DNA of 63,980 nucleotides, filler included, from Hausera hauseri (Eukaryota): the NCBI GenBank assembly GCA_046269625.1. It is 11 parts of 11 records of this genome, joined end to end, with 100 filler letters (N's around TTAATTAATTAA, not from the genome) between each part and the next. Parts side by side here need not be neighbours in the genome. Positions count along the whole stretch, not along the records: positions 15,742 to 20,888 come from JBJURY010322495.1; 10 more parts are not named here. One strand, given 5' to 3'. The notes beneath the pieces are model-generated. The model did no database searches. It saw nothing but the letters and a program-made list of their open reading frames with translations, and had not been told where the DNA came from. How positions within the stretch are numbered: position 1 is the first letter of the stretch; every line of letters starts with the position of its first letter. Shown one piece after another: positions 5,382-53,470 of this stretch. A program made the position numbers and the translations under genes.

Positions 5382-5480
5382 CAATTACAGGTCGGGTTAT
5401 TCCACCATCTAACAAAGAATTGGTTCAAATTTAGAACAATACTTTGTTATAAGATTAGCCCTTACTTTTTGTTTTTCAGA

Positions 5481-5988
5481 ATGGTAAGTTTGGATAGCCG
5501 ACTTAGCATCGACGAATATTTACGGAAACAGGCCACAGTATTCATCCCAAATTCCAAATCTATCTACAGACGCATAAACGATGCATTACAAGCAAAAACT
5601 TAATCGAAATTACAAAAGTCAGCGAAATTCCAAATGAGCTAAAAGGCATTACAGAGGAGAACCGAGCAGTTTACCTATACGCAATGCGTGAAGACAATCA
5701 AGCCAAAGCTTTATTCCCTAAAAGAATTGATCCGAAACCGACCAGCTAAAATACAGGATATATATATCCACGTAGCCGATGGAAAAATATATTATAGGAT
5801 AGAAAACCAAACTTGGAACTCAAATGAAGTGCATCAATATCGGTTCAGTACATTCAAAATAAGCGAAAGAGGACTAGAACCTATTAACTACGGCCTTGAC
5901 TTTCGAGTAGCATCCCTTCCTGTCAAACTTATGTTCGAAGTGACCTAAAAAGAGAACTGCAACCTAGGCTTGCCAGTTCTAAAGTTTG
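5481..5988 (+). pseudogene. Accessory ORF (N-terminal part), homologous to 20989-21437 and 18278-19399
   Basis: SIDEYLRKQATVF..SIYRRI..KVSEIPNELKGITEENRAVYLYAMR..DIYIHVADGKIYYR aligns by eye with the contig 4 ORF; frameshifted. Confidence 0.7.
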
Positions 5989-9725: not shown

Positions 9726-12700
9726 GTGAAAATTGTTTTTCTTCCTATTCCACAGAGACAAAGACACACTTGTGGCATCTGCGATAGAGTCTTCACACTT
9801 GTTCATAACCTTAGACGTCATAATGACTCTGCACTGGGAAATAAAAACATACATGCAATATGCGCGGCAGAATATTTACCAGAAGTGTCAGCCTGTTGGT
9901 CCACGTACAAGGGGATCATTGTTACTCGCTAAAGAGGCCTGCTCCCTCCTATTTCAAGCGACACTGGCTACTGCTCCTTCCCAAGATAAAATACTGAGAT
10001 CTGCTCCTTCGAATAAGGGGGCTGCGCTAACTGGAAAAAAAACATAAACTGAACGAGGACCGGGTTGGTCCTTCCAAGAAAAAACAAAAAAAAAGCATCG
10101 GAATATGATTCGTTAATTGATTTACCCAATGATGTGAGAAACAGATATGATGACAATGAGGCATCTATAAAAACACACAGTATCATTGGCAAATACATTT
10201 CCACATATACTTATTTCCACAGACTAGACACTGAACACCGTTTGGACTGGAATTGTCTTTTAGACAACATATTTAATTGTCAGACACGTGGTTTAAAATT
10301 AACTACAGCCATCATTTCATTCGTAGGCACATCGAGACAGGGGATCTTAGATTTTATCATGCATTATATCAAACAATGCAGCAGTCTTAGAAACACCTAA
10401 ACATATCAAGAAACGGGCAGACTTTGTAGATTTCATTAAACATTTAGAGCCACAAGATCCAGTTAGCTTTGCATTACACAACAGGTCTAACACCAAATAC
10501 ACAATAGAAGCCATTCCTCCATATAATTTTTATATTTACCATTTAAAAGGATACCCGATTGGATGCACTCTAGACGAAATAACTGAACTCTTTACAAACA
10601 ACAAATCCATTTTTACACTAAAACACGACTCGTATACCACACTATATACAGATAATCTATGCTTCATTTGTTCTTTGGCAGTTTTTAGGGGTAGTGCCAT
10701 TAAAAACTTCAGTAAGTCGACACAACTCCTCAAGCATTGGTATGACTACCAGAGTCTCCAGCTCCTGGATAGTTTCCCCCGGAATTAGTTGAATAGATAT
10801 TCCCGATTTAGAAGAGTGTTTCCAGATAAATAAATATATATTTGAATTTGATGAGTACTTATACTTAAACTCGGAGGTAGCGGCGAATATACTCTGTTTA
10901 TTAGCGTATAGGAACCATTTTATGTATATTTCAAATATTGACCAAGCAGTACATGCTTTTTCGTGTAGCAAATGCAGCAAGCTTTTGCCCGTCCGCTGTA
11001 ATTTTATGAGACTCGAAAAGACATGTAATGGAGGCAACTCTGTCGATGTCTTTAAGGGTGGTGTTTACAGCCCACTCGAGACTATTTGTGAAGAAATCGA
11101 CCTGCTTGGAATATCAGTTGACACTAAGTTTATTTACTCATATCGAGCAAGATTTGATTTCAGACATATTCCCAAAAGACAAAGTTGGCTCCTGAGGCCA
11201 GTTCGACGACATTTGTCGCAAAGCACGTACCGTTATCGTGCTCTAGAGCTTCTAATGTGCATGGAATGACGGATTCCGTTTGCTTCGATTAAAACGGGAA
11301 TCATCGAGCCTTGGTTAATGACATAGTCGCCAATCTCCAAGAAATTTCGGAGATGGCTTATAGACTTTTAAAAAATCATTTGAGGACGTGCTTAACGTCT
11401 TGGGCAAGATAGAAGACAGAGCCCTCCTAGGTACGCTGATGCGTTTTTTGTACCAGCTCCCGGTCATAGGCATTAACTCGAGAAAACTTGACATTAACGT
11501 AATTAAACCATATCTCATAAGTGCACTCGCCACTCAAGGCGTGAATGGGGAAGCCGCTCAAGGAGGCAGCAATGGAGAAGAAAGTTTCCAAGAGAAGAAC
11601 CGAGCTGGAGCTGCCCAGGCTTCCGCCAAGCCTCATAATTTTATAGTTAAGTGTAACAATAACTTTATGTGCCTTTCTACACTAAAGTTGAAATTTTTAG
11701 ATATTTGTAATTTTCTGGCGCCGGGTTTTAGCTATAGCAGGTATTTAGCTGCGTGCAAGATAGAGGAAAGAAAGGGATATTTTTGTTATGAATATATTGA
11801 TGATTTAGCTAAATTAAATGAAACTAGTCTACCTCCCCACTCAGTGTTTTTCTTGTCCCTTAAGAATAAAATTTCAGATTCCAAATACTCATTTTTTCAG
11901 CACGCTTGGGGAGGAAACCACATGAAAACCCTTTAAGATTTTCACATTTGGTACAACTATAAGGATTAGTGCCCTTTTCAGATGCGTTAGAAAAACGATT
12001 GAATTTTATTCTAAGTTAGGATTCATATTTTCCGCAACGCGATTTCGGTCCCTGTCGTAACATTAAAGTATCTTTTTTAAAAATAAACCCACGGATGCAG
12101 CTTTTTATTTATATTAAAAGCGCGGGAAAGAAATCCATAAAGTGATTAGAGATAATATAGTGGGCAGGCCTCAAACGTATTCCATAGGTACCACGAAAAG
12201 GATGAGACGTGTATTAGGGGGAATACGTTAGTTCTGGAGATTAAAGGGTACGATGCTAAAGGCTATATTTATGGGCTTTAACGCAAGACATACCGACAGA
12301 TTTTGCTATATTTAGGAAGAGGGAAGACGGGTTTAAAGATGCATAAAGTTAATTATTATACAAGACAGTGTCGCCAGTGGTTAGCGTGGGTAGAACACAA
12401 GAATAAAATTACTTTAAAAACTGAATATAACGGTAGGGAAATGGCTTTAGGTTCCTTGTATAAAAGAGTAGATGGGTGGGATAAAAATTCGCGGAGTGCA
12501 TATCAATTTCATGGTTGTTATTTTCACGGACATTCGAATTGTCCCACCACCCGCTGTAAGGTGATTAATCCCGTCAGTAAGATACTGTTGGACAAGTTGT
12601 ATAAGAAACCTCTGACCATTCACGAGTGAATAGCTAAATATGCTAAAGTCGTGATGATGTGGGAATGTGAGAGGAAAGCTCTGAAAAAGTCAAATACATC

Positions 12701-13979
12701 AATAAAAGCTTTTCTGAGCACCATACCTTTTGTGGCGCGATCCACCTTCTAACGGCTACCGACAAAGACGAGAATTCTGAAAGCTGTAAAGGCCAAAAAG
12801 TGGCTTGGTCGAGTGTGAATTACACGTTCCCGAAAAATTGAAGGAGCATTTTTTTGAAATGACTCCAGTATTTAAAATCGTCGAAGTCTCTGGAGCCGAC
12901 ATAGGGGACTTTATGCGTAAATAGGCAATACAGAACAAACTCTTGACGAGTCCCCGTCCTACGCTGGTAAACAGTTACAAAGACGAAAAGATTCTTCTGA
13001 CCTCCTCATTATAAAGGTGGTACATGAACCACGGTCCACAAGTCACAAATGTGTACCGGGTCATCGAGTTTGGTGACAGCGCCGCAAATGCTCGGCGCCA
13101 GGGAGATACGCAATTTCGAATGAGACGCTAAAATTCTTGGGGAATGCTTATGGTACAATTCTTACCAATATAGCCAAACACTCTGATGTGTCTTATTGTA
13201 AGGGTGATGACACTGCCGATGCGGTTAATAGCCCCCTATTTAAAAAGATAACAGAAATTAGTAAGAATCTTTTTGAAGTACAAATGCATAAGGAAAAAAT
13301 AGTTTGGAATCTCCCGTTGCAGATAGGTTTTTTCGTATATCAATATGCAAAGTTAAGAATGTTATAATATTATTATGCTTTTATAGATAAATATGTAGAT
13401 AGGTCCGATTTTCAGCTATGTGAAATGGATACAGATAGTTTGTATTTGGCCCTTAGTAAGTGTGACCTAGCCGATGCAGTCAGAACCACAAATTAGAGAA
13501 GAATTTTGTAGCGTGTACGACATGTGGTTTCCTGCGGAAGTCTGTACCGCGCATAGGTCCATATTTGTTGGGTAAGGCGGGGGTAGATTGTCTGGCCTGT
13601 AGAAATAGGAAAGCATTCGATAATATAACTCCGGCCCTCTTCAAATTAAAATATGCAGGCGAAGGAATGATATTCCCTTGTAGTAAAACCTACCATTGCT
13701 TTGGGAGTTACAACAAAACCATTACAAAAGGCATAACAAAACAACACAGTTACAACAAAACCAGTATAAAAGGCATAACAAAACAACACAACACACTAGA
13801 CAAAGACAAATTCTTATCAGTTTTAGAGAAACAACAACCACAGGCAGGGACAAACACGGGGTTCAAACTACACAAATCCGCAGTATACACTTAAACACAA
13901 CTTAGGAACTCATTATCTTACTCTTATATCAAAAGACAGGTCCAGTCCGAAAAATTCACACCAAAACCACTCGACATTT

Positions 13980-15751: not shown

Positions 15752-16480
15752 TTGGTATTTATTGATTATTTCACCAGATGGGTGGTGGCTTTACCAATGC
15801 CTGATATAAGGGCTGACACAATTGCTGAAAGATTTGTGGAAAATATAGTATTCAATTACGGAGCTCCAAGAATTCTGACAGGGACTGTAATGCAGTCCAT
15901 ATATGATATATTGAAAATATTAAAGTTACGGTCAACGCCCGCACATCCAAAGAATAATGGAATGGTTGAAAGGTATATTGGAGACCTAAAAGGTAAATTA
16001 CAAACAGTAGTAAATACTAGGCAGGATGACTGGGACGAATACATCAATGCATGTGTTTTCGTCAATCGGACATCAGTCCATGAGGCGACTAAAGAAACAC
16101 CCTTTTATATAATGTATTTGCGAGATGCAAGACTACCAATCGATTTAGATTTCAACGTAAAAACAATTTCACACTTAATGGAAATAGAAGACTATAAACA
16201 AGTAATGCAAGAACACCTCCAGTTGGCATACAAAATGATTGGTGATAACCAGAAAGATTATAAATTAAAATATAAGAAATACTATGACCAAAAGACGAAG
16301 CAGCCTAGAATCAAGATAGGCGACCAGGTGATGTTGCATTCTCCAACAATTAAAAAGGGTAAAACGTCTAAATTAGACAGACCATAAAAAGGACCATATG
16401 AGGTAGAAAAAATAGACCTACCGAATATTTGCCTAAAGAAAAATAATACTTCCGTAAAAGTACATATTAACAGATGTAAG
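15752..16480 (+). pseudogene. Gypsy integrase core + GPY/F C-terminus
   Basis: FIDYFTRW, YGAPRIL, HPKNNGMVER, ETPFYIMYLRD, KLDRP*KGPY..VHINRCK. Confidence 0.92.
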
Positions 16481-16579
16481 CCTGCTGCTAAGGAGAGTAA
16501 GTTAAGAGAAGGTAAAAAAGAGTTAGTAAACAGCATCAGTGAGAAGGAAATCGAAAAGGACTCAACGAATAAACTGCCT

Positions 16580-17965
16580 ATAAAGAAGATATTATTACTA
16601 GGCATCATTCTATTACTTCCCATAGTAGTAGGACAAATGTCGGATCAAAAAGTTCAAAAAGCCAAAATACGACATGCTACAGCCATAAACGAGGATCTAT
16701 GGTTAAAAATCTTAAAGTATCACATAACATATTCCATGCAAGGTCAAAAATGCATTACCTGGTATACTACGAGACAAATACCTGGTGATTATATCATAGA
16801 GATACAAATAACCCCAGTCAACGGTCACGAAAGAAACTCTGATGAGAGATATAATAGTTGCACCCTACGTTCAGTGACTAATAAAACGCAATGTCCAATA
16901 GACACTTCAGGGACACATAGGGTATACCTAACGCTTATAAAAAAGAAAGGAGGTTATTATTATAGTTTACATACTAAATTTTACAGGTATATACGAGTTC
17001 CCAATAGACAGGGAATGAATGAAACACTGCTTGATGAAATAATACTCGCTCAGAAAAAAATAAGATCAATAGAATTTAAAAGTGGACGAAGTTGTCTCGA
17101 AATAAGAAGTATGATAGAATTAGAATATATTCGATGGATAACGATATCCATAAAAGAAATAGGAGGCAAACAAAGATTATTGAAATGTGAATTAACCGAT
17201 GAACAGCAACAAGTTTGCTGCAACGTAACAAGAGGTAAAATATGCGAAGTAAAATATACTTTGTCACGAAAGGAACACGGAAAGCTCAAGAATAGAAGAC
17301 AGAAAAGGTCCGACAATGTTTATACGATATAACAATCAAAATGAGTATGATGATATACGAAGAAGAATCACGGTACCACCTGTGCAAGTCTCGCCTGATA
17401 CCAAGGAGATGACTATTCTAATTAAACCATATGCTTCTTATTACCGCCAAAAACGTTCTATCTGGGATAACGTAACTATTATAGCACTCCCACGGCACTA
17501 ATCATCTCTCTTAGACCAGATCTCGACTTCATAAAAATTAAATTTGTCTGTAAAAGACAAGACACCACAGTAGCAAAAGGAATAATAACTCCTGATGATC
17601 TGATAGTGCTGTGTGCGGCTTTAGAGACTAATACGAAATATACAATTATGTTACAATTATTAGACGTTAACGATAAAATAACCTCTACAAAAGTAATGTC
17701 TCCAATCACAAAAGGTACTAGAATCGAATCACCATACAGATTAAATACAATCATGAATAAGACAACTAAAAAGCCATTACGAGCAGGATATAAGTATTCC
17801 CGCCTAGAAATAATCATAATAGGTTCAATAACCCCTGTGGTCTTAATAATAATATTGTTAATAGTGAGTAAAATCTTATATTGGCGATACAAACGAAGAA
17901 GAAGCTGGGTCAGAATTGATATGCGAAATCTAGCGAATCCGTTAGATACGGACAACCCCAGCTGA
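16580..17965 (+). pseudogene. Type I membrane protein with signal peptide, FN3-like repeats, two RQKR furin-type sites and TM; starts in frame with integrase
   Basis: KKILLLGIILLLPIVVG|Q in the integrase frame; CCNVTRGKICEVKY; CAALETNTKYTIML; TM IIIIGSITPVVLIIILLIVSKILYW then RYKRRR; internal frameshifts near 17320-17500. Confidence 0.75.
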
Positions 17966-18277
17966 CGATTAATGTTGAGGATTGCAATATACGCAACCCT
18001 CAGTAAAGAGATAACCAAACAACATCGAGTTATCTTATACGTTAAAAATAGTTATAACGAAACCACAATGATTACCTCCCTCAGTTGTTTGATAACCGTT
18101 GTGTTGTATTTAAGTATCGTGATAAATGACGTTTTGACTCTTATTTTTACAGTCTCAGCTACAACGTTCCACTAGATCCAGTCTATTACTCATTCCAAAC
18201 ACTGGTACGGTAACGTAAAGAACCATATAATTAACGCCAATCCGTCCAATCAATACTACGTATCACACAATGATAAT

Positions 18278-19399
18278 GTGACCAGTTTAAACTACCCTCA
18301 GATTCAACAAATCCTTAACAATATAAAAGGATATAGTATGGCTAACCGATCTTTCGCCATAATGCAAATTACTAAAGCCACATCATTTCTCCTAGAGGAT
18401 ATAATAATCCTACCAGATCGATTCCATTCTATGAATTTGTACGGCGTTGTGGGTCAAATTCAGATAAAAACAACAGACAAAAAAACATCAATTAAAGGAG
18501 ATCTAATCTATGTCGATCCTGAACACGGTCTAGCTTTCGATTACACCTTCCTTAAAGACAATCTAATTAAAATTTGTTCGTGCACAAACCGGGTAATATT
18601 AGCAATGAAAATAATTAAACTAAAAAAATTCTTTCCCAGTCTGCCAGAAGGAAGATGCTTCAATCTCCCGGAGCCTGACTACGTCAAGTACAAAAGTATC
18701 CCTTATAGAAGATTGGACAAAGTTACAGATAAAGACATGGTCATAGCCGCCGTAAACTTGGCCTATGACCAATGGAACCAGCTTCAACCTATCGAAGCCT
18801 CGGTTCTAACAATGAATGGAGACACCTTGCTGTATGGAACCATTACCCCAAGGCAGCGTATTAACAATTTCGATACGCACATAACCGGCCTCACAGAGTC
18901 TAATATCAATAACCAAATCGATCCAGTGGATTTTTACCGAAAAGTGACAGAAGCAATAACTGACAAGGATGTTATCGGAGCCAACGTGGTTGAAATTGTT
19001 ACCAACCATTTCAAGTGTCCAATCCGACGGATAGCTGGAGTACGTGATATATTATATCACGAGGATGTTATCCGCCGGTATCAGTTAACAACTAAGACTT
19101 ATAAAGAATTGGCCCGCAAATTCTATTACACAAAGGGCTTTTCTCTACGAATCACTGCCTTAGCGCAGTGCTACCAATCTATCTACAAACAATTAAAGTG
19201 GTCAGATGAGCTCATCAACCAAAGCACGGCCTCCGATACGGTGCGAACAGCACCCACGACATCGCAATGTGGAAGGAAACGTAGAATTCAACTTGATGAA
19301 ACAGTCGTACTGGATGATAAAGTATACAAGCCCGAAGCCATCCGATATAAATCAACAACAGGAAAATATATCCATATGCCCTTGTCGTTCGACCAGTGA
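18278..19399 (+). CDS. Accessory protein: unknown N-terminal domain + degenerate DEDDh (ISG20/REX4-like) exonuclease domain; frame extends upstream to 17966 with one TAG at 18173
   Basis: Long open frame; ASVLTMNGDTLLYGTITPRQRINNFDTHITGLTESNI..KVTEAITDKDVIGANV..VRDI resembles the REX4/ISG20 core but lacks ExoI DxE and GH..D. Confidence 0.65.
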   Translation: MTSLNYPQIQQILNNIKGYSMANRSFAIMQITKATSFLLEDIIILPDRFHSMNLYGVVGQIQIKTTDKKTSIKGDLIYVDPEHGLAFDYTFLKDNLIKICSCTNRVILAMKIIKLKKFFPSLPEGRCFNLPEPDYVKYKSIPYRRLDKVTDKDMVIAAVNLAYDQWNQLQPIEASVLTMNGDTLLYGTITPRQRINNFDTHITGLTESNINNQIDPVDFYRKVTEAITDKDVIGANVVEIVTNHFKCPIRRIAGVRDILYHEDVIRRYQLTTKTYKELARKFYYTKGFSLRITALAQCYQSIYKQLKWSDELINQSTASDTVRTAPTTSQCGRKRRIQLDETVVLDDKVYKPEAIRYKSTTGKYIHMPLSFDQ

Positions 19400-20988
19400 T
19401 AAATTCGGGGCAATTTATTGAAGCCCTCGTCTAATTCTACAAACCATTTGGAACTTTGCCATTTTAAATGGATCATATACGATCACATAGTACAATATTT
19501 GATCACGCAATATATTATTGACTTCTATATATAATATACATTTAACATTGATAACTGAAAAATGATACGTGATTCTTCTTACGTGATACGTGATTTTCAT
19601 ATGACTTTAATGGAATTTTTTGAGTGAAAGTTGTTTTATTTATTTATAAAGGAATTATTGTATGTACTATATAAACCGTGATTTTCTTCATCACAACACA
19701 ATTTTTTTGCCATTACTGATGACATCACGTAAGTGTAATAATTTAATTATTACGTCTGTTTGTTAAATTGTCAATTTTTCTTTGGTAACTGTACGTGTAA
19801 TCAAATAGAGTTATTTATTTTATTTAAAAGGTTGTTGTGCTTTCCTTAAGTAATAAAAGTAATTAAGTAACTCAATTAAATCGGATAAATTCTTCGTCCA
19901 GGTTAAAGTTACCTGACGAAGGCCAAATTAACTCCTAAATAACGTATAAGATATTAATCCGTAAGTAAGTAATTTATTAACGTTACAACTATTCACCTTG
20001 CAACATATTACCTCTGCACAGCTAGGTAAGGACCGTTACAAACTTCCTCAAGGACAAAAGAAAGAATTGTCATACTCATTAATTAGTAAACCAAGACAAT
20101 AATTGTTATTATTAATGAGTATGGAACATTATTCGTGTAGGCTTAGTTTTGAAGTCGAACTCACTACAAGGCTAAGACTATCCCGACCTCCAACTGTTAA
20201 AGTAAATTTTAAAAGAATCCCAAATTTAGCATTTGTAATTTGATATAACACAACTTTTTTGATTATTATTCTCTGATTGGGTTAAATACATAATTCATTA
20301 ATGTAAAGAAGTTCAAGCAGAAACAAATATATTAAAATTTTATAAACAGGTTTTCATGGCAAATAATTGCAAAGTCAATATTTTTAGTCTGTTTACTACA
20401 TTGAATGAAACTTTATAAGCAGATCCGATTGATAAAGTCGGACAAATTTGAATCGTTTAAATTTCTGTTGACTTTGGCAATTGTGCAAAATAAGAAAATG
20501 TCACCCAGGATATTGATACTTGTTTTAAAGTATGAATCATTGTTACTTATATTTGAATAAATTAGTGCAATAAATATCTTTGTCCTTTAATAAAATGTTC
20601 CCTTAACTTTTAGTGTTTTACTTAAAGAAGTATCATTTATTTGTCTAATCATAACGGAGGTATATTCACTTTGTTTTTGAAAAGTCGAATATGTTTGGAA
20701 TAGTATCACATGTTTAAAAAAATAAGAAAACAATGGATATGGTTTTTACATATGTTCCAAGGGAACATTTCTAACTGTCACACAATGGTTTTTATAAGGA
20801 ATAGTCAGATACCCGCCTTCGCAAAATTCAGCAGTCAAGTATGAAATTGACATACTTTGGTATAATTATACATACAATACAAACGAGCNNNNNNNNNNNN
20901 NNNNNNNNNNNNNNNNNNNNNNNNNNNNNNNNTTAATTAATTAANNNNNNNNNNNNNNNNNNNNNNNNNNNNNNNNNNNNNNNNNNNN

Positions 20989-21437
20989 GCGGCAATCCTC
21001 AATTCCATTTCATTTTCGCATAAGCTTTTACGACACAACTTGAAGGTACTGAACTTGTATTTTCGTCCCTTGTTTGAGCTCCAGTTTTTTCCAACTAATC
21101 TGTAGTAAACCTCTCCTTCAGCCAAATGTACATACACATCGCATTGAGGTCTTATTTCGGATTTCAGTAATTTTTTTAAGTTGTATGATCGGGCATCTTC
21201 GTTGTTTCTCATGGCGTATAATAGCAGAACTCTATTTCCTTCCACGATTCCTTTCAAATTGTTAGGGATTTTGTCTACTTGATTATATTCCACTAGTGTT
21301 CTATTCTGCAGTTCTATGTGGACTTGACGATATATAGCGTTGGAATTATGTGTTATTATAGTCGCACTTTCCTGTAAGAATTCGTCGATGTCGGTCTGGT
21401 CACAGCATTTATTTCGATTTGCCATCTTACTTACCAA
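20989..21437 (-). CDS. Accessory ORF (partial; runs off contig end)
   Basis: Open frame, same frame as the upstream membrane protein; homologous to 5481-5988 and to the start of 18278-19399 (Y.Q...I.NN.KG....NR). Confidence 0.7.
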
Positions 21438-29783: not shown

Positions 29784-32470
29784 TTGAATATAACTTATGC
29801 TTTTGGATTTTGTCTATGTTACGGAATTACAAATTGGTGTCAGAAGATATTGTCTTCATTAAACGAATTCCATTGGATACCTTCTGTGAATCCTGATAGT
29901 ATTAAAAAGGAAAAGAGAATTCTTAATGATATTCGAAAGAAGCTTTATGGTATGTACGCTAAAATCATTCAATCCTCATTATGGAAAGGCCATTTTAGCA
30001 GAAAACAGCAACTTCAATTGTCAAGAAATTGAACTACTTAGTCGTAAAAGTTGCGGTTTTAATGCCTTCAATGTATACAACGTAGCTGTAAAAATCATAG
30101 ATGGTTTCATTCCAAAAATCCATGTCGAAAATGAACCGGGTAGACGACAATACGATTACGACTTGAAAGCGTCCGACAGGAAATCTTTGTCAAATGCCCA
30201 AATCATTCGGTGAACTCGAAAGAGCGTCTAGGAATTACGGCGATAATAAATACTACACAGTTTTTGAAGTATTAACAACAGAAGGTTCAATGAAACCAGA
30301 ATTTGTTGAACCACCCATCAATCTAATCTCATCAGAAACCTATTCGCATTTGTTTGTCGTATTCTATGAGTTCTGGGATCCACATTATATGTATCCAAAT
30401 GGGAAAATCCTTGCAACACCCTCGCAGTGTAACATTCTCTGACTCACTCCCTTTGATATCGTTATGTGTAATATTGATCCAGAAATTGGTGGTTTACAAG
30501 ATGAGATAAAAACTATTGGTCAATCTGTTAATGGTTTTCAACCAAGCGTAAAGTTTCCCGAAGGAACAATAATATTTACTGTGGACAATGAAGATACTGT
30601 GAACACTAAAGATACAAAAATTCCGCCGTCATACTTGTTTGATAGACGACTCCGTGGATTTATTTAGTTTGGTTCCTCATAAACCCAGAGCGGTAATTAG
30701 TGTTTTGTTCCAGTTCAGCAAGACGGATTTATTTAACAAATGTGACATACGGGGAATATGTCATTGTTTCAAAATATAAGTTGAATTATAGGCCAGTTAG
30801 TGCTTGTTTGAAATCCATAACAAACACCATTGATGTTTATGATGGTAAGTTAATTGAGGGTATAAGAGTTTGTTTCAATATAGCGAAGCAAATTCGTAGG
30901 AAGCGTTTGCCTGAATCGTACTTTGTTCGGCAAGCCGATCACGTCCGTTTCAATTACGATTATGACGATACGTTTGATGGTCATATTTTGGTGGAGGAAT
31001 TCATGTTATTGGCCAATGAGTATGTGGCTAAGGCTATTTATCAGAAATTGCCAAATTTGAGTTTGATACGAAGTCAGGAACCGATAACTGATGGAGATAA
31101 ATGGGCGAAACAGCTGTACAAACTTACAAACGTTAAGTTTTGTGCTTCGTTAGCAGACTATTGTTCGCTCCTGAATATCGCCGAAATCAATAATGACAAA
31201 AACAACTTAATTGTTAGTCGGACATTCTATGATTTCTTCTGCGAATATATCGAGTCGAATCTTTCTCATGCACGGAATATGCTACAGTACGACGAATTTT
31301 ACAACAAATTCTATTATCACTTATCCGAATGGTATAAGCAAAGTCAACCAGCATGTTACCAATGCAGCGAGTCGAATAGCCCGAGCAGTCGTCACTTCAG
31401 TTTCAACAAAAATCTATATACTCATTTTACAAGTCACATTCTTCGATTTACGGACCTTGTTATGCACATCCTTCTTCGATCTTTCATAACAAATTCCGAT
31501 AACGTAAATGCTATCGATAAATCAGAAATAAATGACGTTTGTTCGATTGCAAACGGCAAGAAGAAAGACCAAAAATTATTTGAAATGATATGTGGAACAT
31601 ATTCATTAATGGATACGAAATCCGGTACCCATTGCTTTATACTAGACTGCGTGGTAACGAATATTGAAAAGGATAAATTCCATTTTGACCATCCATTTTT
31701 GAGGAAATTCTCAACGAAATCATCCATCAAATTCAATCATCTATCGCTGACCCAATCCACAGTGGAGTTTATGACAATTCACGAAATACCCGGTTTGTGA
31801 TTTTCGATGGAGAAAAATCTTCTATTCTTGCAATATGACTTTACAAACTGTGTCGGACACGTGTATTGAAATTAAAATTAATCTCTTCGACGTTATTTTG
31901 AACTGTTATTCATGGATACTGTTGCGAAAAATTCGCCGTTCGTATCAGAATCCAGAGGACCTAATTGATGAATTACACGAATTAAAATTGAATTTTACGG
32001 TTAATGAAATTGGACGTATTTTATCAGATTGTAGTCCGTATAGCAATCCGGTTTTAGATATTAAATTATTCGTAAATCTAAAAAGTACTCTTAGAATTCA
32101 GTTCTGCAAATACCAATCAAACTGATTATGGAAAGACATTCCTGAGATATTAATTATTACTCCAACGTTCCATCTGTGTCTTCTCCATTATGAAGATTCC
32201 GTGATTTGTTTTGTTCCCGGCGGAAAACTAATGTTCGACTTTAATGATATTGAATGGGAATTTCAATCCAGCGATGATTATAAACGATATTTTGAGCCGA
32301 TGTTTCGATTCGAATCATTGATGGAAACACTGTACAATCCTAACATATTTAATATACAGGACACGCCTGTTGAATGGTTCCAAACGAATGTTATGGATTC
32401 AAAACCATATGGAACATTCGGCATTTTGAAGCTTGATTTTAATTTCTGTAAAGCTCGGATTATCAAGTTT
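29784..32470 (+). pseudogene. Intron-less RNase II (RNB) domain gene fragment, HELZ2-like
   Basis: IFTVD, HILVEEFMLLANEYVA, LIRSQ, RHFSFNKNLYTHFTSHILRFTDLVMH; downstream [27 protein letters not shown] resembles the post-RNB segment of HELZ2; several stops and frameshifts. Confidence 0.75.
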
Positions 32471-32479
32471 TACGGTTTA

Positions 32480-32870
32480 CTATTTATGTTTCAACATACA
32501 GAACAGGCTATTGCGGAACAAAGTTATTTAAGCCGGCACAAAGACATAACTAATTCAGACATTCCTATTCCCACAGAAAATTTTGGTGCTGACCTCTTCC
32601 GTTTTTCCAAAAAATTTAAATCACTTGACAGAATTTCACCAAAATTGATATTTTGTCAAATGACATCGTTGATGACATTAATTGGATATTATCTCAACTA
32701 TCGAGGTCTTAATTATTTGCGATTGGATGGACCTACCAAATCTGATGATAGAGGAGACCTGCTGGCTAAATTTAATAATCCAGACAATTATTTTATATTT
32801 ATGTTATTCACAAGAGCCGGAGCTCTAGGACTTAACTTGCAAGCTGCTGATACAGTCGTTATATTTTATC
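32480..32870 (+). pseudogene. Fragment of BRM/SMARCA2/4 (SNF2) helicase C-terminal lobe
   Basis: [81 protein letters not shown]. Confidence 0.88.
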
Positions 32871-33456
32871 CTAAAAAACAATTGCGACAAAAATCAAGTC
32901 CTACGTCGCCTAAATCTTGTAACAAAACACAAGGTCATCATGACAATTTTTTACACGCGCAATTATTTAAATTATGGGACGAATATAGACTAATCTACTT
33001 AGTTAATCTGTTTTTCTCAATCACCTTCACAAATCGGTTGTCCAACGTTTATACTTCAGATTTTGACAAACTACCTTTACTTATTGTATTGTTATCTGAT
33101 ATTATTAAACTTTGCGAAACTGTTTTTCAAACGAATGAAACCGACTGCCATCTTAATCTAAACGGTCAATTCATCGTTTTTTCAACTACCCATCTCTCAA
33201 AAATCATGTTTCATAGCCAGTGGCTGCAGCAACGGTTGGATCAATATTTGGCACATCAAAGATAGCTGCCTGTTGATCCACCATTCAATTTTAAACAAAA
33301 TTATGACGACTGTATCAATTGGTGAAATCAATCTGCAACCTACCATTTTAAAATCAAAATCACTATTCGCAATCAGTGAATGTTTGAATTTTTCACCTCT
33401 TACAATGTATCGAAATACTGGTCATCTTACGTCGATGATCACATACGAGGGATTTT

Positions 33457-35904
33457 TTGGTTGAGGATCTGAGCGTGCCCGCCCCCATTGCGCCATGTCA
33501 TCTCTCTTTTCTTATCCTTTCCAATAACACAAATGTCCTCACATTAAGGGCTACACACAGTCAATCACTTCATATTCTTTATACCGAATTGTCCTCTTAC
33601 TTCGGCACCTCTGATTTTTACCTTATGCACAACGGTCTAATTCTGCAACCTTACGACTCTCTTTCATCCTTTGCACCCGAGAAATATTCTATCACTCTCA
33701 CTGTCCATTTTCACGTCCGTGGTGGATCAGACCTTGATCCTTCTACCGAACACTTAACAAAAACTAAATCTAGTCGTCGTCCTGTCGATACCGCGCCAAC
33801 AACTTCTCCAAATGTCCCCTGCATGGATTTTTTTCTAGACAAGACGAACTCTAGTAGTACCTGGCTGCAGTTCCATTTGCAATGGCTTAAAGCTAATCAT
33901 ATTACAGATCCCTTTCTGCGGGCTAACATTTGCTGCTATTACTCCTAGCCAGCATCAAACAGCAGATAAGTAATCTGGCTGACATACTCTCCTCTTTAAG
34001 CCCATATGATATGCTGTACGAAAACTCTACATATCACCGACCCTTCCATCGACAGCATAATCTAGAAGTACTTTAACGAACACGCCACTGGAAATCAAAA
34101 ACCATCGGATTTCTTTAAAACGGCCATCTGACAACTGAGCTTTTTAGGCGTGACTCCCACAAACAATGCTGATCTTCTTCGTCGGTACCTTCTCTCGTCT
34201 TTGCCAACCTCCATTCGAGCTTTGTTTACTGTAGTAGATGACTCCACTGCCTTCGAAAAGCTCGCCTTATTGGCAGACAAAAGCTTTGATATTCTGCAGT
34301 CAAATAACTCGCAGCCTATAGCCGCAGAAACTGCTCACACACTGCCAGACAACACCTTATTTTTACAACAACTGCACATGATGCAGAAACAGTGCGACAC
34401 ACTCCTACAAGCAATCTCTGCGATCACAGCTCAACTCAGTGACTTATCCGTGCCTCGAGGAAACGAAAATCGTATTTCTCGAAATCGCAGTTTTTTCAGG
34501 CACTCTTCTCGTTCTAAATCTAGAGATAGTAAAATGATGTGCTTTTATCACAACAAATTCCGCAGAGATGCATGGGAATGTGTTTTAGGCTGTCGATTCT
34601 ACGATGCACGATATACCGTAGGCAATCCAATCTGCATCTATCACGCAAAGTACCAGTCCAAGGCTAAGTCATGCGTGCCAGAATGTAAACATTATAAAAG
34701 TAGTCCTAGTTCTTCTCCATTTTCTTCGCCTCCGCACAATCACCATTCTTCCTCTTCTTACCAACAAGTCTCAAAAACCAATAATGCCACCAGATGCTAC
34801 GGCACATTCTGGTACAGGCAATATCCTTCAAACTACTGGCCGTTTCAACACCGCTACTGCAGTCTTTCTGTTGACTGCTGAAATTTGATTTGGATACATA
34901 TCACAAATAGATTTCCTTATCGATTCAGGAGCTGCTTTTTCACTTCTTCCTTTGTCTTTCGCTCCTACGTCTAACATAGTTTTCTCTCCTCCACTTTTCA
35001 CTGCCTGTGGTCGACCTTTGAACATTGTAGGTACCACAAAACTGACCTTCACCTTCTCCAACCTACCAGGGAAATTCTCCTGGAATTTTCACAGAGCCAA
35101 CATTAGATCGCTTATAATAGGCTCCGATTTTTTGGCTGCATATGATATGCTATTCGATTGCTAGCATAAATGCCTCCTGCGCAGAGATTTCCTTGAAAAT
35201 TCTAGCAAATGCTCACAAAACTACCAGTCGGTCAATTTATTTTCCTCTGCTTATTCAAATGTCAATTTGACATCCTGTTTATCGGTTGACAATAACACAC
35301 TTAACATTTCATCAATATTTTTAACCTCGGCAAGTGGGAATAAATCAATCCTGAAGCACTCGGCCGAACTAAATGTCGTTAATGAAGCATTTAGTCATTC
35401 TGCATTAATTACAGCAAATGACTCTTATGATGATATGCCATCATCATTCTTATCGTTGGGTTCTGACCTTAAATCCTACATTAAGATTTTTTGTTCCCGT
35501 ACTTTTAAGAAGGACATCAATTTCAAACCGCATTCTGCAACATATCATTACATAGTCACCGAACACCAAAGACCTATTAGACAAAAGGTCAGACCACTGT
35601 CACTTCGCAGACGAAAAGCCGTTGAATCAGAGTTCAACAAACTCGAAAAGGCGGGAATTATTCGACGATGCAAATCACCATGGGCTTTGCCTTTGCATGT
35701 TGTGACAAAGAAAAATGGCACATACATACCATGCGGTGATTATCAGCATTTAAATAATCTAACAGTCATGGATGCTTATCCTTTACCGCTTATAAATGAC
35801 ATTCTGCACAGCCTTACCAACACTAATACGTACTCCACAATTGACTTGCATAAAGCATATCATCAAATTTCTGTTGCACCTGATGATATTCCAAAAACTG
35901 CTAT
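33457..35904 (+). mobile_element. Gypsy element 5' part: ubiquitin-like domain - Gag - protease - RT start (same family as 25375-28447 and 50681-53470)
   Basis: ..HNGLILQ..HVRGG; LLRRYLLSSLP..LALLADK; CFYHNKF..C; FLIDSGAAFS; IIGSDFL; SPWALPLHVV..CGDY..IDLHKAYHQI. Confidence 0.88.
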
Positions 35905-36004
35905 NNNNNNNNNNNNNNNNNNNNNNNNNNNNNNNNNNNNNNNNNNNNTTAATTAATTAANNNNNNNNNNNNNNNNNNNNNNNNNNNNNNNNNNNNNNNN
36001 NNNN

Positions 36005-36083: not shown

Positions 36084-37832
36084 GGCACACGTGCAAAATC
36101 GATTTATCCATTCCCCTCCCCTTCCGGGGTGGGACAGAAAGCACATTTTCCCCCTACTTATAAAATAGTTGGAAACGTTAAATGTAGTTTAATGGTACAT
36201 AATAATTAATATATAGTAACAAAGAATTGTATGTATGAGAAACAATTGCAAAAAGGAGATATAAAAAGATAATTAAACCAAACAGTCGGTCTACACAGAA
36301 TTATATATGGAACGAAATAAGAGAAGACTACGTAGATTCGAAGAAATTGTGGTTGAAATTGCGAAAGACTTGTTCCTTCATTAACTGTTTCATTGATTTG
36401 TTGATATTCCGTGTCGTGTAATCAGCAACTGGTAAAATTTTATTTATTAAAAATTGTATTACTCGCTAATTTTCTACATAGTTTTTAACCGCTCCTTAAG
36501 AGTGGTTTGACGTCCACTAAGTGTTAAATCAGAGCAAAATATATAGATAAAACTAGAGTCTGATTAAACTCGCACGCAATTACCAGCACCACTGTTTATA
36601 ATATCATCATAAGTAAGGCACAATCTGTCTATCCGAGAACGGTAGAGCTTACCTGTAAGAAATATTAAATTCAAGTGTAACTACTGCTATATAGTGGGAG
36701 AGCGCGTAAGGGCCACCACAATATATAACAAGATCATTTTAATTTTTCCGTAACCTAGTAATTGGTCGGACCACACCTGTCCGGCTATAACAATCGGGTA
36801 TGCTGCCAAGTCAAGTCTGAATCGAACATTTATTTCCCTTTGTTTTGTACAACAACAACAACAATTAAATCGTTTTTAATGAATGTTAGGAGTACACAAA
36901 CCACATGGGTTAACCAATTCCGTAGGAGATTGAGAGAGTCCATCGGAATTAGTTACATTGCAATGTTGCTTGAAACAAATCCGATCTGCTGACTGCCAAA
37001 GTGGAATGTAATCACCTTTGACAAAATCTTTCACGAGCCGTATTTGACATGGATTGCCATCCAACGCATAGTAATCCGCCAATTTCCGATAGGTGCGAAA
37101 CAAGTGACCGAATATTATATCCATGTCAACAAGAACTTGCTTCATATGTCGTAGATAAGGTTCTCGTGACCTCTAATTCTCCTCAGCACGCCGGAGTACC
37201 TGTTCGGGAGAATAGTATCGTGCATCATGTAAAGGTCGATCAAGAGTGTAAAAGTGATTCCGGAGACCGTCGAACAAGTGATATAAATGAATGAGTTCTG
37301 TTAAATGGGATATGCCATAATGTCATACCGTAAAGAAGCGCATGTATTTATACTGAAATGTAACAACAGCAAAGACACGTGAAATAAATTGTATTGATTC
37401 AAGAAAACAAACATAGCAAAATAATACATATTTGTGATTATATACGGTCAATCAACATTTTCATTACAATACAAAACGAAGCAGAAAATACAAGTACAAT
37501 GAAAAAATTAATCCGTCGTTGTTGTTGTCGTTTTCGTCTCATTTCATCTTTGATACGTTGTATGAACATAGATCTTACTAGTAACTTAATATACTCTCGC
37601 CTGCTCATTATTCTAGTTTCTGTGAGCTCACATAAAAACTGTACATCAAACACATGTCCTGTCAAAATACAGTAATGGGAATAAGTTGTGGTGTATTGTA
37701 ATTAAATTTATTTATTTATAATTAATACATTTTCATTTATTTTTAGTTTAACATTTACTTTAATTTGTTTATCATTCACAAATGTTTGCAATATCCTATA
37801 TATTGCGTAACTCGCATACATGAGGGTGGACA

Positions 37833-40472
37833 GTGCCACAAGGAAATGGCCGAATATTATTTAGTGGCAAGGACACGTACCTATGTCCCGTGTGTTTTAT
37901 TCAAAACACATGCCCGTACACCGAATTTTATGAGATACACAAGCACCATCTCGGTCCGTTCACGCGGTCCAAGAAGATGATGGTTGTGCATTGCCCCACA
38001 TACCCGCAATATTGTAGTTGTAGTAAAGTGCATGACGTTGATGGTTTCCATAGTGTAATGGAGCAGTACTATGGCGCCACAAAGGTGCATGGTAAACGGG
38101 CCAACGTTTCTCCCGGTTGTTCTATAGTTGATGAAATCAACTATGAACAATTCTGCAACATTCACAAGGACAACTTTAACCAGTTTCAGCAGTCCAAAAA
38201 GGAAATAGTTATGGCGCCAAGAAAAACCAGTATCCTCCCAACAAGCAGGAAACATCAATCATCCACAAGTCTTGACGAATACGTCCGAAACAGCACCGAT
38301 CATCATCATCAGCAGCAGAAGCAGATGCTACAGCAGGAGTCTTCCATTACTGTCAAGTACGATCTAAACAAATCGTATGTGGACGTGAAATTAAACATGT
38401 CGGGTTCAATAACACTACAACTGAAACACGTTCCGTCCAGCGTGCGCAACCAATTGGAATTAGAAATGGAAAAATTCAAACGCAACAACATCAAGGTGCA
38501 ATATCATGCACTTGCACAATTTGAAAACTTTGAAGGTGACTGGAAACAATGGTATGTGTCACATCGAGCCGCACCGTATTCAGAAGATTTTATTGTCGAT
38601 GTAGGCGAAAAGTTGGATGAGGAAATCGCCAACTACACGGAAAAGGGTAGTAAATGGCGAATTATACGAATTGTTACACTCGGCTTTATCGTAATAAAAT
38701 CGAGTGACGCGGTATATTTGTCTGGACGGTCATTCATACCGACACCTGCATCTCTAAGGCATTTGCTGGTGGTAGTAAATGTACAAAATACTGACGATGA
38801 CGACGAATACTATTTTCTGTACAGTATTTCGGCTGTATTGAAGTACAACGAAGTGAACTGATATCATGCAAATCATCCAAATCAGCATCGGCAGTATTTT
38901 TTCGAATTGCAATTTGATGAATGCTAGATGCCGATAGAACTGAAAACTTTTTCGGCTTTTGAACGGCGTAATTCGACGCTGTCAATTAACGTTTACCGGT
39001 ACAACACAATAGTTTAAATACCGGAAGACGAAGAAATTTATAAGAACCCCCATGTAGACATAATTTATCGCAGTCGGAACCCGAATGGACGCTCGGTAAA
39101 TTTGTTGTTTTTGGAGCAGGCTGAAAAATTTCATTACGTGTCAGTGACAAATCTGGATAAACTGTTGAACATGGAGCATGACCAGTTAATTAAAAAGTGA
39201 ATACGATGCAAATAGTTTCCTGTATCTCTGCATGGATTCAGATCGGAAACAACGTAAGAGAAATATGTCACGCTATGCAGACAAAACGCATCAAAGACAA
39301 CAGTGTACGTCATGCCCGTCAAAAAGGAACTCAGATTCAGTGATTGGTCTAAAACGGACAGTCCGGCATATGTTCCCTATGCCGATATCGAAACAGTTCT
39401 ACCACCACACAATGTATACTATCAAAAGCACGTTCAAATAGCCGTCGGCATGTTACTAGTACCAATAAAAGCCGCCGGACAAGCACAGTATTACGTTTTC
39501 CATGGTTGGAACTGTGTGCGTGATTTCCTGCAGCAGTTGGAAACCATAGTGGAAACGGAAATGGCGCCGTGGTATCGCAACAATTGCAATAAGCCATTGA
39601 TTGTGGCAGACGAATAACAACCGTTGCTTTTCACTGTCACCGATGAATGTTATCTGTGCCACAAAATAATACAGTTTGATGCACAGGAACGGCTCGTATA
39701 GGATTACGACCATTTCACCGGTCGATACTTGGAAGTAGCATGTAATTCATGCAATTTAGCAAGGCGGGTGCGACCATTCTTGCCGGTGATTTTTCATAAT
39801 TTCCGAGGTTATGAGTGTCACTATATTCTCAAATGGGTCATTAACGGCTTTTGGCACTAAAAGCTGTCAATAATCCCATTGACAATGGAGAAATACTTGT
39901 ATCTGCCGGCACGCATAAACCGATTCCAGGTACGCTTCCTTGATTCATTGCAATTTCTTAATGAATCATTGGCAAAGCTGGCAAATGTGTTGCCAAATGT
40001 GCCGATAGCACTGACACAGTTCCCTGCACATATTGTACGCAGCAAAGGCGTATTTCAGTAACTTTGCAACATCGCATGAGCGACTCCGGACAGCAGAGAA
40101 ATTACCGCCGCTATGGACAGGTATTACAGAAAATGAATATCGGAGAGCACAAGAATTTTGGACAGAACTGGACTGTAGAAACATGTTGGATTACATGCTC
40201 CAGTATTTTAAACTGGACGTGTACTTATTAGCCGACGTGTTTCAAGCATTTCGGACCAAAGCGCTAAAAGAAGATAGGTTGGAACCACTCAACTTTTATT
40301 CCATACCGGGAATGAGTTGGGCGTCGGCTCTAATGTCACTGGATCGAGACATTGAGCTGCAAAAAGATCCGGAAATGTACCGGCTGTTTGATGTCGGTAT
40401 TCGCGGCGGCATGACATTTGTCAACAAACATCAGGTCAGTGCTACCGCCGATACCACATCACTGCTGTATAT
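37833..40472 (+). pseudogene. Polinton pPolB (N-terminal/exonuclease half) with an endonuclease VII/HNH insertion
   Basis: YTEKGSKWRI; VNVQNTDD; PYADIET; CYLC..DHFTGRY..ACNSCN..VIFHNFRGY; RFLDSLQFL; LDVYLLADVF; YSIPGMSW; GIRGG. Confidence 0.88.
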
Positions 40473-40649
40473 NNNNNNNNNNNNNNNNNNNNNNNNNNNN
40501 NNNNNNNNNNNNNNNNTTAATTAATTAANNNNNNNNNNNNNNNNNNNNNNNNNNNNNNNNNNNNNNNNNNNNGATTTTACGAAGAATTAATTGACGAAAA
40601 CTTAAAAGTGGCCTATGAAAATAAGCCACAACCAAAAAGACATCTAACT

Positions 40650-50680: not shown

Positions 50681-53470
50681 TTATTTTTTTGTAAGGTGGA
50701 ACCTTACACTAAGCATATCGGTAGTAGTTTTTGGTAGCTCGATGTTTCGTAGTTGATGGATTCTATAAGGCTCTGGACTGTGGCCGTCAGGTGTGATGAT
50801 GTGGCCAAGGAAATTTACCTTTTTCTGAAAGAATGCACATTTAAAAAAGTTCGCTTTTAAATTGTAGTTGTGCAAGAGTTGGAAAACTATTCTGAGATGT
50901 TCTTCGTGTTGTTTTGGTGATGCTGATGCGACTAGTATGTAATCAATGTATGGATATGCAAATGACAAGCCTAAAAGAACTGAACCGATGTGCCGTTGGA
51001 AAGTTTGTGCTGCGTTCTTTAAACCGAACGTTATGAATGCGTACTCGAAAAGACCAAACGGTGTTATTATGGCCGTTTTGGGGATGTTTTTTGCTGCTAC
51101 CGGTATTTGGTGGTAGGCTTTTTCGAGGTCTATGGTTGAATAAATCGTAGTCTTGTGTAAAGAATGCAATATATCCTTAATCAACGGTAGAGGATAAGTG
51201 TCAATGGTTGTGACATTATTAAGTTGTCGATAGTCGCCGCATGGACGGAGTGTGCCATCTTTCTTTGGGACGACGTGGTGTGGTGATGCCCATGGTGATA
51301 TAAAGCGCTTTATGATTCCGGCTTGCTCGAGGGCAGAGAATTCCGCTTGTACTGCCTGTCGACGGCGTGGTAAAAGTGGACTGAGTTTCTGCCTAACGGG
51401 CCTAAGGTTTTCTGTGACGATATGATGAAACGTCGTGTTAGTCGGTCGAAGTGCTGGATCTTTTTTAATTGTATGAAAACAAGACTTGGTTAGATATTGC
51501 TGCATTTCTTGGCTAAGCATAGTAAAGGATGTTGTTGTCGCGACAGTGGTTTAATTGGACTTATTGTGTAAAATGCTAGAGATGGAATCGCCTAAATCGT
51601 CCTTGTGAACGCTTTTTTGTTTCTCTATTACTGGACTGTAACAAAATGTTTGATTATTTATATGGGTATTAATGACGTTCTTATTTGCAAAGGTTCTTTT
51701 AATATCGATTTTATAAGTGAAATAAGTTACGTGATTTGTTGATTATTTGAAGAGGTGGGTTTTGTTGGACTTCTCTTGATGATCTGACGTTGTCTACAAT
51801 CTACAAGGAGGTTGTAAAAAGATAGGAAATCAGATCCGAGTATTGGCAATTGTGTCGGCAACGGTAAATGTCCACTTGAAAATGTCGGAGAATTGTGGTA
51901 ATGTGAATGAAACTTTGGATGTGCCGAAAATGCGTAAGGCTTGGCCGTTTGCTGTGTACAGTTTAGTGTTAGACGGTGAGATAGATAGTGTTTTGATGGA
52001 TGGCGGTAATAAGGAAACGGCAGCCCCTGAGTCAATGAGGAAGTTGATTGATTGACTTGGATTGGATGTTAAGGAGGATTTTAATGTGAAGACAGCATTT
52101 GTGCGGCTGTAGCAATGTCGAGAGTAACCTTTGCCAGCATGCGCTGGAACATCTGGCGGCTTCATTAGTTCTTTAGATAGAAGGATTTGGGGAGTCAGGA
52201 GAATTACGATGGAATTGTTTAAGTCGACTGGAAAACGTGAAACCGTCGACGCAGTTTCGGGCTCTGTTACCGAACCCATTATGGTAAATGCAAACGACGT
52301 CGGGTTTTTGAAAGGCTGGTGTATAGAGTTTGCACCCCAAGCAACATTTGATGGATTGGTTTTTGAATTTATTGTGACAATAGCACACTATAGGTCGAGT
52401 AGGGGACCTAGAGGATCTAGAATTTTGCGGTGAGGCACGGCTGTGATTAGGTGTGAATCGATTTCGTCGCAGCATGGATAAATAGTCCAGTTTGAAAGTT
52501 AGAGCAAAAATGGTTTGGTGTATTGCCGTGTTTTCAGCTCGGAGAGTGTTTATTTGATTACTCAGCGCTACGATTTCATCATTGTGTGGTGTTATAAGAG
52601 GTTGCAATGCGACTGCGACGATAGGAGTATGATGTGTATTTAGTATATCGTAACTTTTATCAGCCAGTTGTGCTAACTTTTCTAACGTAGTGGTATCTTC
52701 AACTACTGTTAGTAAAGTGCGTATTTCTTTCGGTAGTGATTGAAGGAAATATCTGCGCAATAAGTCGGCGTTGTTGGTTTGAGTCAAAGATGTTTGTAAA
52801 AATTCAGAGGGTTTTAGTATGCCTATTGTTTTCATTGAAATATTTCTGGACAATGTTATCCAGAGAAGGCTCGGTGAGTTTAAGTACGGCGTTGAAGTGT
52901 TTCGTATGGGTCTACTGTCTGAAAAATATCGGAAAGATTTGGTAGTAGTGACTTAAGGTTGGCTAGTAAAAGTATTAATAGGCTATTGGCTTTGAAGAAA
53001 GGGTCAGTGATCTTATTCGATTTTAACCACTGCGCATAGAATTCTAGCCATGTACGACTGGAGTGTTGTTTATCTGTAAAATAGTCGTCACAATGGAAAT
53101 TGACCGAAGAGGGTGCTGCCAGTGGGACTAAAAAAGACGGCTTTAGCGGAACATGTATGGTTGGAATGTCAATAAAATCTTTTTGGTCCTGAGAAGATGC
53201 TTTTGGGTCAGATCCGCCTTGTAAACAGTAATGTGCAGTTAGTATAGGCGTCTAAGATAAGCGTGTGTAGTTGGTGATAATATCGGATTGCTGCAAAAAG
53301 AATTCATTAAATCTGAGACGGAAATTAGTCGGTAATGCTTCTCGTTGTACAGCCGCGAACAAATGTGCGATGGTTGCTGTTTAAAGTCTATAGTATGCGT
53401 ATGTGCGTTTATTTCCAAGTGAAAGAGGTAAAAATATGAAGTTTCCAGATATGTCGGGTGTACAGACATG
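50681..53470 (-). mobile_element. Gypsy element 5' part: Ubl - Gag - protease - RT (truncated)
   Basis: LTAHYCLQGG|SDP; NNADLLRRYFLQSLP; CYCHNKF; FLIDSGAAVS; RT 50681-51520 with PCGDYRQLN, IDLEKAYHQI, FGLKNAAQTFQR, YIDYILVAS. Confidence 0.9.

Follow-up and report, generated by a model that had tools for sequence, protein, structure and literature searches.

A Gypsy-type retroelement gene of Hausera hauseri joins a predicted AlkB-type fold to an ISG20-type exonuclease domain without its usual catalytic residues

We analyzed a window of 63,980 nucleotides of Hausera hauseri DNA, made up of 11 contigs separated by spacers (N44, 12 fixed bases, N44); the element types suggest an invertebrate animal as host. 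On the contig at 15742-20888, an accessory gene lies downstream of a Gypsy-type integrase and on the same strand, which bears out the retroelement location given in a preliminary description of this DNA. Homologs of its N-terminal domain were found on two other contigs. Features are listed below by window position and strand, with residues counted from the first codon of the accessory frame; X1 and X2 are two public runs.

5382-5945 (+): homolog of the AlkB-like domain in a second element (contig 1), frameshifted, after a transmembrane gene, cut by the contig end.
15743-16570 (+): Gypsy-type integrase, of which the contig, starting within it, has only the 3' part; an in-frame stop lies at 16385-16387.
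16388-17965 (+): membrane-protein (putative env-like) gene, frameshifted, in three pieces (16388-17332, 17253-17501, and 17471-17965).
18135-18152 (+): candidate splice acceptor, just 5' of where the conserved part of the accessory gene begins.
18173-18175 (+): copy-specific in-frame stop that breaks the leader of the accessory gene; 17 of 17 X1 and 5 of 5 X2 contigs covering it read otherwise.
18176-18634 (+): N-domain, residues 1-153, a predicted AlkB-type double-stranded beta-helix (pLDDT 87-98 per block).
18635-18733 (+): linker, residues 154-186 (pLDDT 60-66 over residues 151-180).
18734-19213 (+): C-domain, residues 187-346, a predicted DEDDh fold of the ISG20/REX4 type that keeps none of the five catalytic residues.
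19214-19399 (+): tail, residues 347-407, modeled with low confidence; it contains the basic run RKRR (19274-19285) and a short beta motif.
20991-21425 (-): homolog of the AlkB-like domain in a third element (contig 4), after a transmembrane gene, cut by the contig end (19.1 bits).

The integrase piece fell below the Pfam cut-off (rve, E = 0.0089), and phmmer matched it to the integrase of contig 4 (E = 2.4e-10), a contig on which reverse transcriptase, RNase H, and integrase follow in Gypsy order. By hydropathy, the membrane-protein gene has a signal-like stretch (~16574-16630) and a C-terminal transmembrane stretch (~17810-17866); it carries indels relative to other copies near 17300 and 17486. 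The label env-like is putative. The order of integrase, membrane-protein gene, and accessory gene repeats in window contigs 1, 3, and 4. Two of the three pieces of the contig-1 homolog scored 13.8 and 12.4 bits with the profile of the accessory-protein family described below (shuffled maximum 2.5), the first piece giving no reported match, and the contig-4 homolog aligns closely with family member P0011. Of 11 JGI loci of members with an intact catalytic site, four (L003, L005, L006, and L011) extend far enough upstream, and in each of these a membrane-protein gene lies 5' of the accessory gene; in sequence, these membrane proteins have no significant similarity to those upstream in the window. 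Copies matching the 5.1-kb contig were found in 6375 X1 contigs and 850 X2 contigs, most of them <95% alike. The contig is without the 5' half of the element, and no LTR pair was found on it; multi-copy DNA resumes at 19870-20213 and depth is low beyond ~20214, possibly a 3' LTR and its flank.

Some loci have further genes beside this pair. L006 (3-1679) is pol-less in layout: retropepsin and membrane protein form one in-frame fusion, reverse transcriptase and integrase are absent between them, and an intact-site accessory gene comes next. Extra coiled-coil-like ORFs lie between the membrane and accessory genes at L011 1773-3058 and L010 588-1166, those of L011 being duplicated (94-nt repeat). 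On window contig 1, the C-terminal part of a Monjiviricetes-type fusion glycoprotein (15-365, +; PF24664, E = 2e-15) lies 5' of the protease; the second membrane gene is on this contig too, as is the homolog of the accessory gene. Elsewhere the window holds a piggyBac-type transposase (55057-56851, +; PF13843, E = 2e-74), an RNB domain followed by a Helicase_C fragment (30697-33265, +; E = 3.7e-23 and 5e-12), and further reverse transcriptase fragments of other elements (35165-35956, +; 50681-51550, -). Fragments at 10351-13894 and 37824-40524 have only a weak PF03175 match (E = 0.094), and we take them to resemble the protein-primed DNA polymerase B of polinton-like elements. The last contig (58172-63980) has a GC content of 0.56-0.62 vs ~0.37 and long ORFs on both strands, and is probably from another organism.

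The accessory frame spans 18176-19399 (+), and its translation contains every peptide stretch quoted in the preliminary description. The 373 open codons reported there hold as a count from a GTG at 18278, as against 407 codons between stops and 353 when counting starts at the first ATG. Two other points did not hold. The frame is not a complete ORF: columns 11 and 46-51, which the family conserves, precede the first ATG (codon 55), and the GTG too is preceded by column 11; nor does it end in the DEDDh-like segment, which is followed by a tail of 61 residues. The basic stretch of this tail is common to P0001, the single close homolog found (55% identical), and is a possible nuclear localization signal. 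Conserved columns start at residue 11, upstream of every start codon 3' of the stop at 18173-18175, and P0001 has no stop across the matching stretch. The copy in the window is therefore broken whichever start applied, spliced or unspliced, and is likely a decayed one.

The acceptor-like site ending at 18152 has the top ad hoc score among the 300 AG sites of its contig. Similar sites lie 1 and 13 nt 5' of the start ATG in contigs 1 and 4, where an equal or higher score is reached by 0.3% and 0.7% of random windows. Among the JGI loci this share was below 5% in only three of nine, and the signal was weak in several. On balance, the gene is probably spliced. The alternative is an unspliced start at the upstream in-frame ATG 17972 or 18068, which would give a hydrophobic leader like the one called for P0001.

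Folding from the single sequence was unusable (pLDDT 31), and we worked with an alignment-based model (mean pLDDT 84.8), in which the two domains are predicted to hold a fixed mutual arrangement (pTM 0.73). As the preliminary description supposed, the C-terminal domain of this model has an ISG20/REX4-type fold: residues 187-346 match ISG20 (Z = 17.4, rmsd 2.6 Å, 156 residues aligned), followed by ISG20L2 (Z = 16.5), SDN1 (Z = 12.8), and Exuperantia (Z = 9.8), and the Foldseek search likewise returned a DEDDh match (E = 1.3e-7). The resemblance extends to sequence. A profile of 15 catalytically intact relatives, from which the window ORF and P0001 were left out, gave the ORF 66 bits, whereas 300 shuffled sequences (287 reported) gave at most 2.5. 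The ORF alone returned nothing useful, with no match to Pfam RNase_T or to PDB sequences. The profile of 36 family rows matched ISG20L2 (E = 8.7e-26), ISG20 (E = 3.1e-13), SDN1 (E = 3.7e-11), and also PAN2, and 14 of the 36 rows matched RNase_T among the Pfam matches listed. These comparisons show residues 187-346 to be a homolog of the ISG20/REX4 clade of DEDDh exonucleases. An atlas match to arenavirus nucleoprotein (0.86) is a lead only.

Because SDN1 is a small-RNA-degrading nuclease, both its profile and its model match would suit a small-RNA sponge whose dead exonuclease binds piRNAs or siRNAs by their 3' ends and thereby suppresses silencing directly, in line with the silencing suppressor suggested in the preliminary description, intact members degrading such RNAs instead; a silencing role was raised for element-borne DEDDy genes by Rodriguez et al. 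(PMC5408684, available text). ISG20 and ISG20L2 outscore SDN1, however, and such a sponge leaves the AlkB-like domain unexplained, and we regard it as improbable.

The catalytic residues of ISG20 are D11, E13, D94, H149, and D154 (PMC9157404, available text). All five corresponding columns (192, 194, 274, 324, and 329) are replaced in the window copy and in P0001. As first described, the ExoI DxE is gone (A192 and N194, 18749-18757), as is GH..D of ExoIII (L324 and L329). The ExoII column reads I274, and an acidic residue (E273, D in P0001) stands one column earlier with an indel after it, so the loss of ExoII is less certain than that of ExoI and ExoIII. Judged from sequence, this is a DEDDh 3'-5' exonuclease domain without its usual catalytic residues, predicted to be dead.

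To place this loss within the family, we searched with a profile of the ORF and P0001, which matched 36 cluster representatives (E ≤ 0.001). Two of these, P0031 and P0035, resemble typical host proteins of the REX4 type and form no part of the family alignment. All five columns are covered by 26 of the 36 rows, the 10 partial rows being left out of this count and of the tree. Fifteen rows have all five residues and 11 have none or one (five of these 11 have Glu at the last column, which was not counted as catalytic). Loss of the catalytic site is thus shared by relatives, P0001 among them (11 of the 26 rows), and not by the 15 that keep the full DEDDh site. For this lineage, neither outcome that would have counted against the preliminary description (no DEDDh fold match, or catalytic residues kept) was observed. 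With so many intact relatives, it is most likely that the element family carried an active exonuclease whose activity was lost later. The earlier idea of a captured host exonuclease kept dead in a retroelement therefore stands as to the Gypsy-type element and the selection on the gene, and most likely fails as to capture followed by inactivation within the window element. The tree of full-coverage rows did not place the host donor. In this tree, a branch with support of 31/70 separates the 11 dead rows from the rest, which fits one loss or several; shared replacements (Ala at 192 in seven of the 11 and Asn at 212 in eight) make us lean to a single loss.

The dead rows all retain the noncatalytic P225, R226, D249, and G288 (11/11 each). 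Conserved acidic residues raise the question of a nuclease site rebuilt on other positions, e.g., E207, D249, E273, and D291. Maelstrom is a reported case of a nuclease with a rebuilt site. D249 is present in 11 and D291 in eight of the 11 dead rows, and the acidic residue beside the ExoII column is found here and in P0001. However, D249 and D291 are invariant in all 15 intact members too and hence look structural, and small or hydrophobic residues occupy the ExoI and ExoIII positions; a rebuilt site is very doubtful.

Selection on the dead domain was assessed over 18735-19185 from the best-supported 40 of 170 differing places, which are not a random draw, with changes classed singly. Of the differences shared among copies, 28 of 34 were synonymous (neutral expectation 0.34, for transitions; P = 7e-9), which indicates that the dead domain is under selection, whereas none of the six differences private to the window copy was synonymous. 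These results are consistent with constraint on the gene across the element family and with neutral decay of the window insertion. Compared with P0001, the dead domain is 60% identical (96/160), the N-domain 56% (85/153), and the tail 43% (25/58). A functionless relic drifting since activity was lost would account for the private stop, the private amino acid changes, and the frameshifted neighbor genes of the window copy. It is already largely refuted, and hardly credible, given the excess of synonymous shared differences, the open 447-residue frame of P0001 with the same replaced ExoI stretch, and the structural residues retained in 11 divergent dead members.

On structure alone, residues 1-153 are predicted to adopt an AlkB-type dioxygenase fold. 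In the model they match ALKBH6 (Z = 13.8, rmsd 3.3, 148 aligned), ALKBH5 (Z = 13.2), AlkB (Z = 12.3), and ALKBH7 (Z = 12.3), and not far below come prolyl hydroxylases at Z = 10.8 and, over 98 residues, plain cupins at Z = 10.1. Foldseek listed the CENP-C cupin and ALKBH6, and its best matches in a viral library were closterovirus replicase polyproteins and 2OG-Fe(II) oxygenases. Closterovirus replicases carry AlkB. At the sequence level, hhalign gave probabilities of 0.07 and 0.18% against E. coli AlkB and a shallow profile of seven bacterial sequences, the only two targets, and no 2OG family occurred among the 25 of 46 Pfam families listed for the 36 members scanned. An early guess of a dUTPase-like N-domain and weak atlas matches to RNase_T (0.82) were dropped after the fold searches.

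Active AlkB proteins require HxD/E..H and RxxxxxR (PMC9289625, available text). We inferred the register of the N-domain to AlkB from strand order. Among 29 N-domain rows, HxD/E has no conserved instance, its matches being scattered, and RxxxxxR is found in the last strand of none, all its matches falling in residues 1-58. Conservation is seen at Y11, an IPN motif at 46-48, K51, R58, His 89, and G93. His 89 is the sole conserved His column (24 of 29 rows; Tyr here and in P0001), and the last strand has an acidic residue in 26 of 29 rows. With neither motif conserved, the N-domain looks dead across the whole family; His 89 and the acid could pair to form some other pocket.

The accessory protein belongs to an unnamed element-borne family that fuses a predicted dead AlkB fold to an ISG20-type domain. 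Of 21 clusters looked up, none was in NCBI or UniRef and none had an informative name, and the N-domain is invisible to Pfam, so standard annotation misses the family. In word-based searches, the 36-row alignment yielded only two members, both already known, and P0021 yielded six, two of them new; no relatives were found in viral contigs or phage records.

Several known systems resemble parts of this protein. With the ISG20/ISG20L2/REX4 clade (PF00929) it shares fold and profile homology, and differs in having none of the five catalytic residues, in being fused behind an AlkB-type fold, and in being element-borne. The ORF3 of bdelloid Juno and Vesta LTR retrotransposons and of Terminons is likewise an accessory exonuclease-family gene 3' of pol in LTR elements, and ORF3s of this kind are typically expressed from spliced messages (PMC5408684, available text). 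That ORF3 is RNase D-like DEDDy with an intact site, and the available text reports no AlkB domain, whereas the window protein has a dead DEDDh domain of the ISG20 clade; the intact relatives of the window ORF have His in ExoIII and an ISG20-clade match, and so look distinct from the DEDDy type. The available text of PMC6338049 and PMC6431247 cites the rotifer case only. Gypsy elements of Phalaenopsis likewise have an AlkB-type domain, an m6A demethylase, in an extra ORF (PMC9289625); there the domain keeps HxD/E..H and RxxxxxR, is near plant ALKBH5 homologs, and is active, whereas the window N-domain has neither motif conserved, has structural likeness only (5-10% identity), and is attached to an exonuclease fold. 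Exuperantia and the PXL of PML are likewise DEDD folds without catalytic residues (PMC13659232, available text), but are host proteins with a SAM-like partner domain, and the window protein is far nearer ISG20. KolobokD also carries a DEDDh gene, but is a DNA transposon with a TREX/ERI1/Exu-like enzyme, and AlkB is unmentioned in the available text (PMC9587614). Nidoviruses have ExoN and, in some, also AlkB, as separate domains (PMC11848433, available text). In the available text of a metazoan errantivirus survey, the terms 'nuclease' and 'dioxygenase' are absent (PMC13524379). Retroelements with active DEDDy or active AlkB genes are thus already known, and an AlkB-DEDDh fusion in a transposon was not found among the papers listed in our searches of largely open-access literature.

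The usual catalytic residues of both folds are gone, yet the protein is conserved between copies, which suggests that it shields RNA and is not an enzyme. Our favored, though tentative, reading is a cofactor that binds the RNA of the element and protects it against host decay and silencing. It is favored because both folds come from families that act on nucleic acids, because RNA-binding DEDD pseudo-nucleases exist (PXL and Exuperantia are such proteins, and PXL binds RNA and does not cut it; PMC13659232, available text), and because the host couples an m6A reader with ISG20 for viral RNA degradation (PMC7046284, available text). Under this reading, the protein would be expressed from a spliced subgenomic RNA and its basic tail would drive nuclear import. 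The ancestor may have had a dead AlkB fold guiding an active 3'-5' exonuclease, and later loss of the cutting site would have left a binder of RNA 3' ends or methylated bases that does not cleave. Several points count against this reading. Splice acceptors are weak in several JGI loci, and no LTR pair was found on the contig. The AlkB assignment lacks sequence support, with prolyl hydroxylases and cupins not far behind in structure. The dead DEDDh domain has no net excess of basic residues to speak of (19 K+R vs 18 D+E), unlike PXL, which requires a positive surface (PMC13659232, available text).

A further point against it comes from P0011, a dead member with a C-terminal RING finger (residues 744-794, zf-C3HC4, E = 2.6e-7). 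Its N-domain is close to the window copies in contigs 1 and 4, both of which are cut before the RING position. The RING finger indicates a protein-adaptor role, in which the two dead folds would bind a host silencing or decay factor and block it or send it for degradation, RNA binding being minor. The charge-neutral DEDDh domain and the long, variable tails of family members agree with such an adaptor or decoy. Nevertheless, a RING finger occurs in only one of the 36 rows scanned (among matches listed), and both folds derive from nucleic-acid-acting families; we consider this alternative rather unlikely, and keep RNA shielding as the preferred reading.

To our knowledge, most accessory genes of animal LTR elements have no assigned function, and animals have few known element-encoded proteins that counter silencing. 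Because one two-domain protein occurs naturally in this family in both intact and dead form, catalysis can be separated from binding with no need for engineered mutants. Should the AlkB fold prove to read methylated RNA, RNA modification would be tied to invertebrate transposon counter-defence, and a new reader fold would be added. A bolder proposal, which we put forward as a long shot, is that animal Gypsy elements carry an undescribed epitranscriptomic counter-defence family, its members joining a dead AlkB fold, as the reader of methylated RNA, to an ISG20-type exonuclease: the intact branch would destroy marked or silencing RNAs, and the dead branch would cap or hide the methylated RNA of the element or recruit a RING ligase. 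If true, the family would be a single-chain, element-owned mirror of the host YTHDF2-ISG20 pathway, with a new m6A-reader fold.
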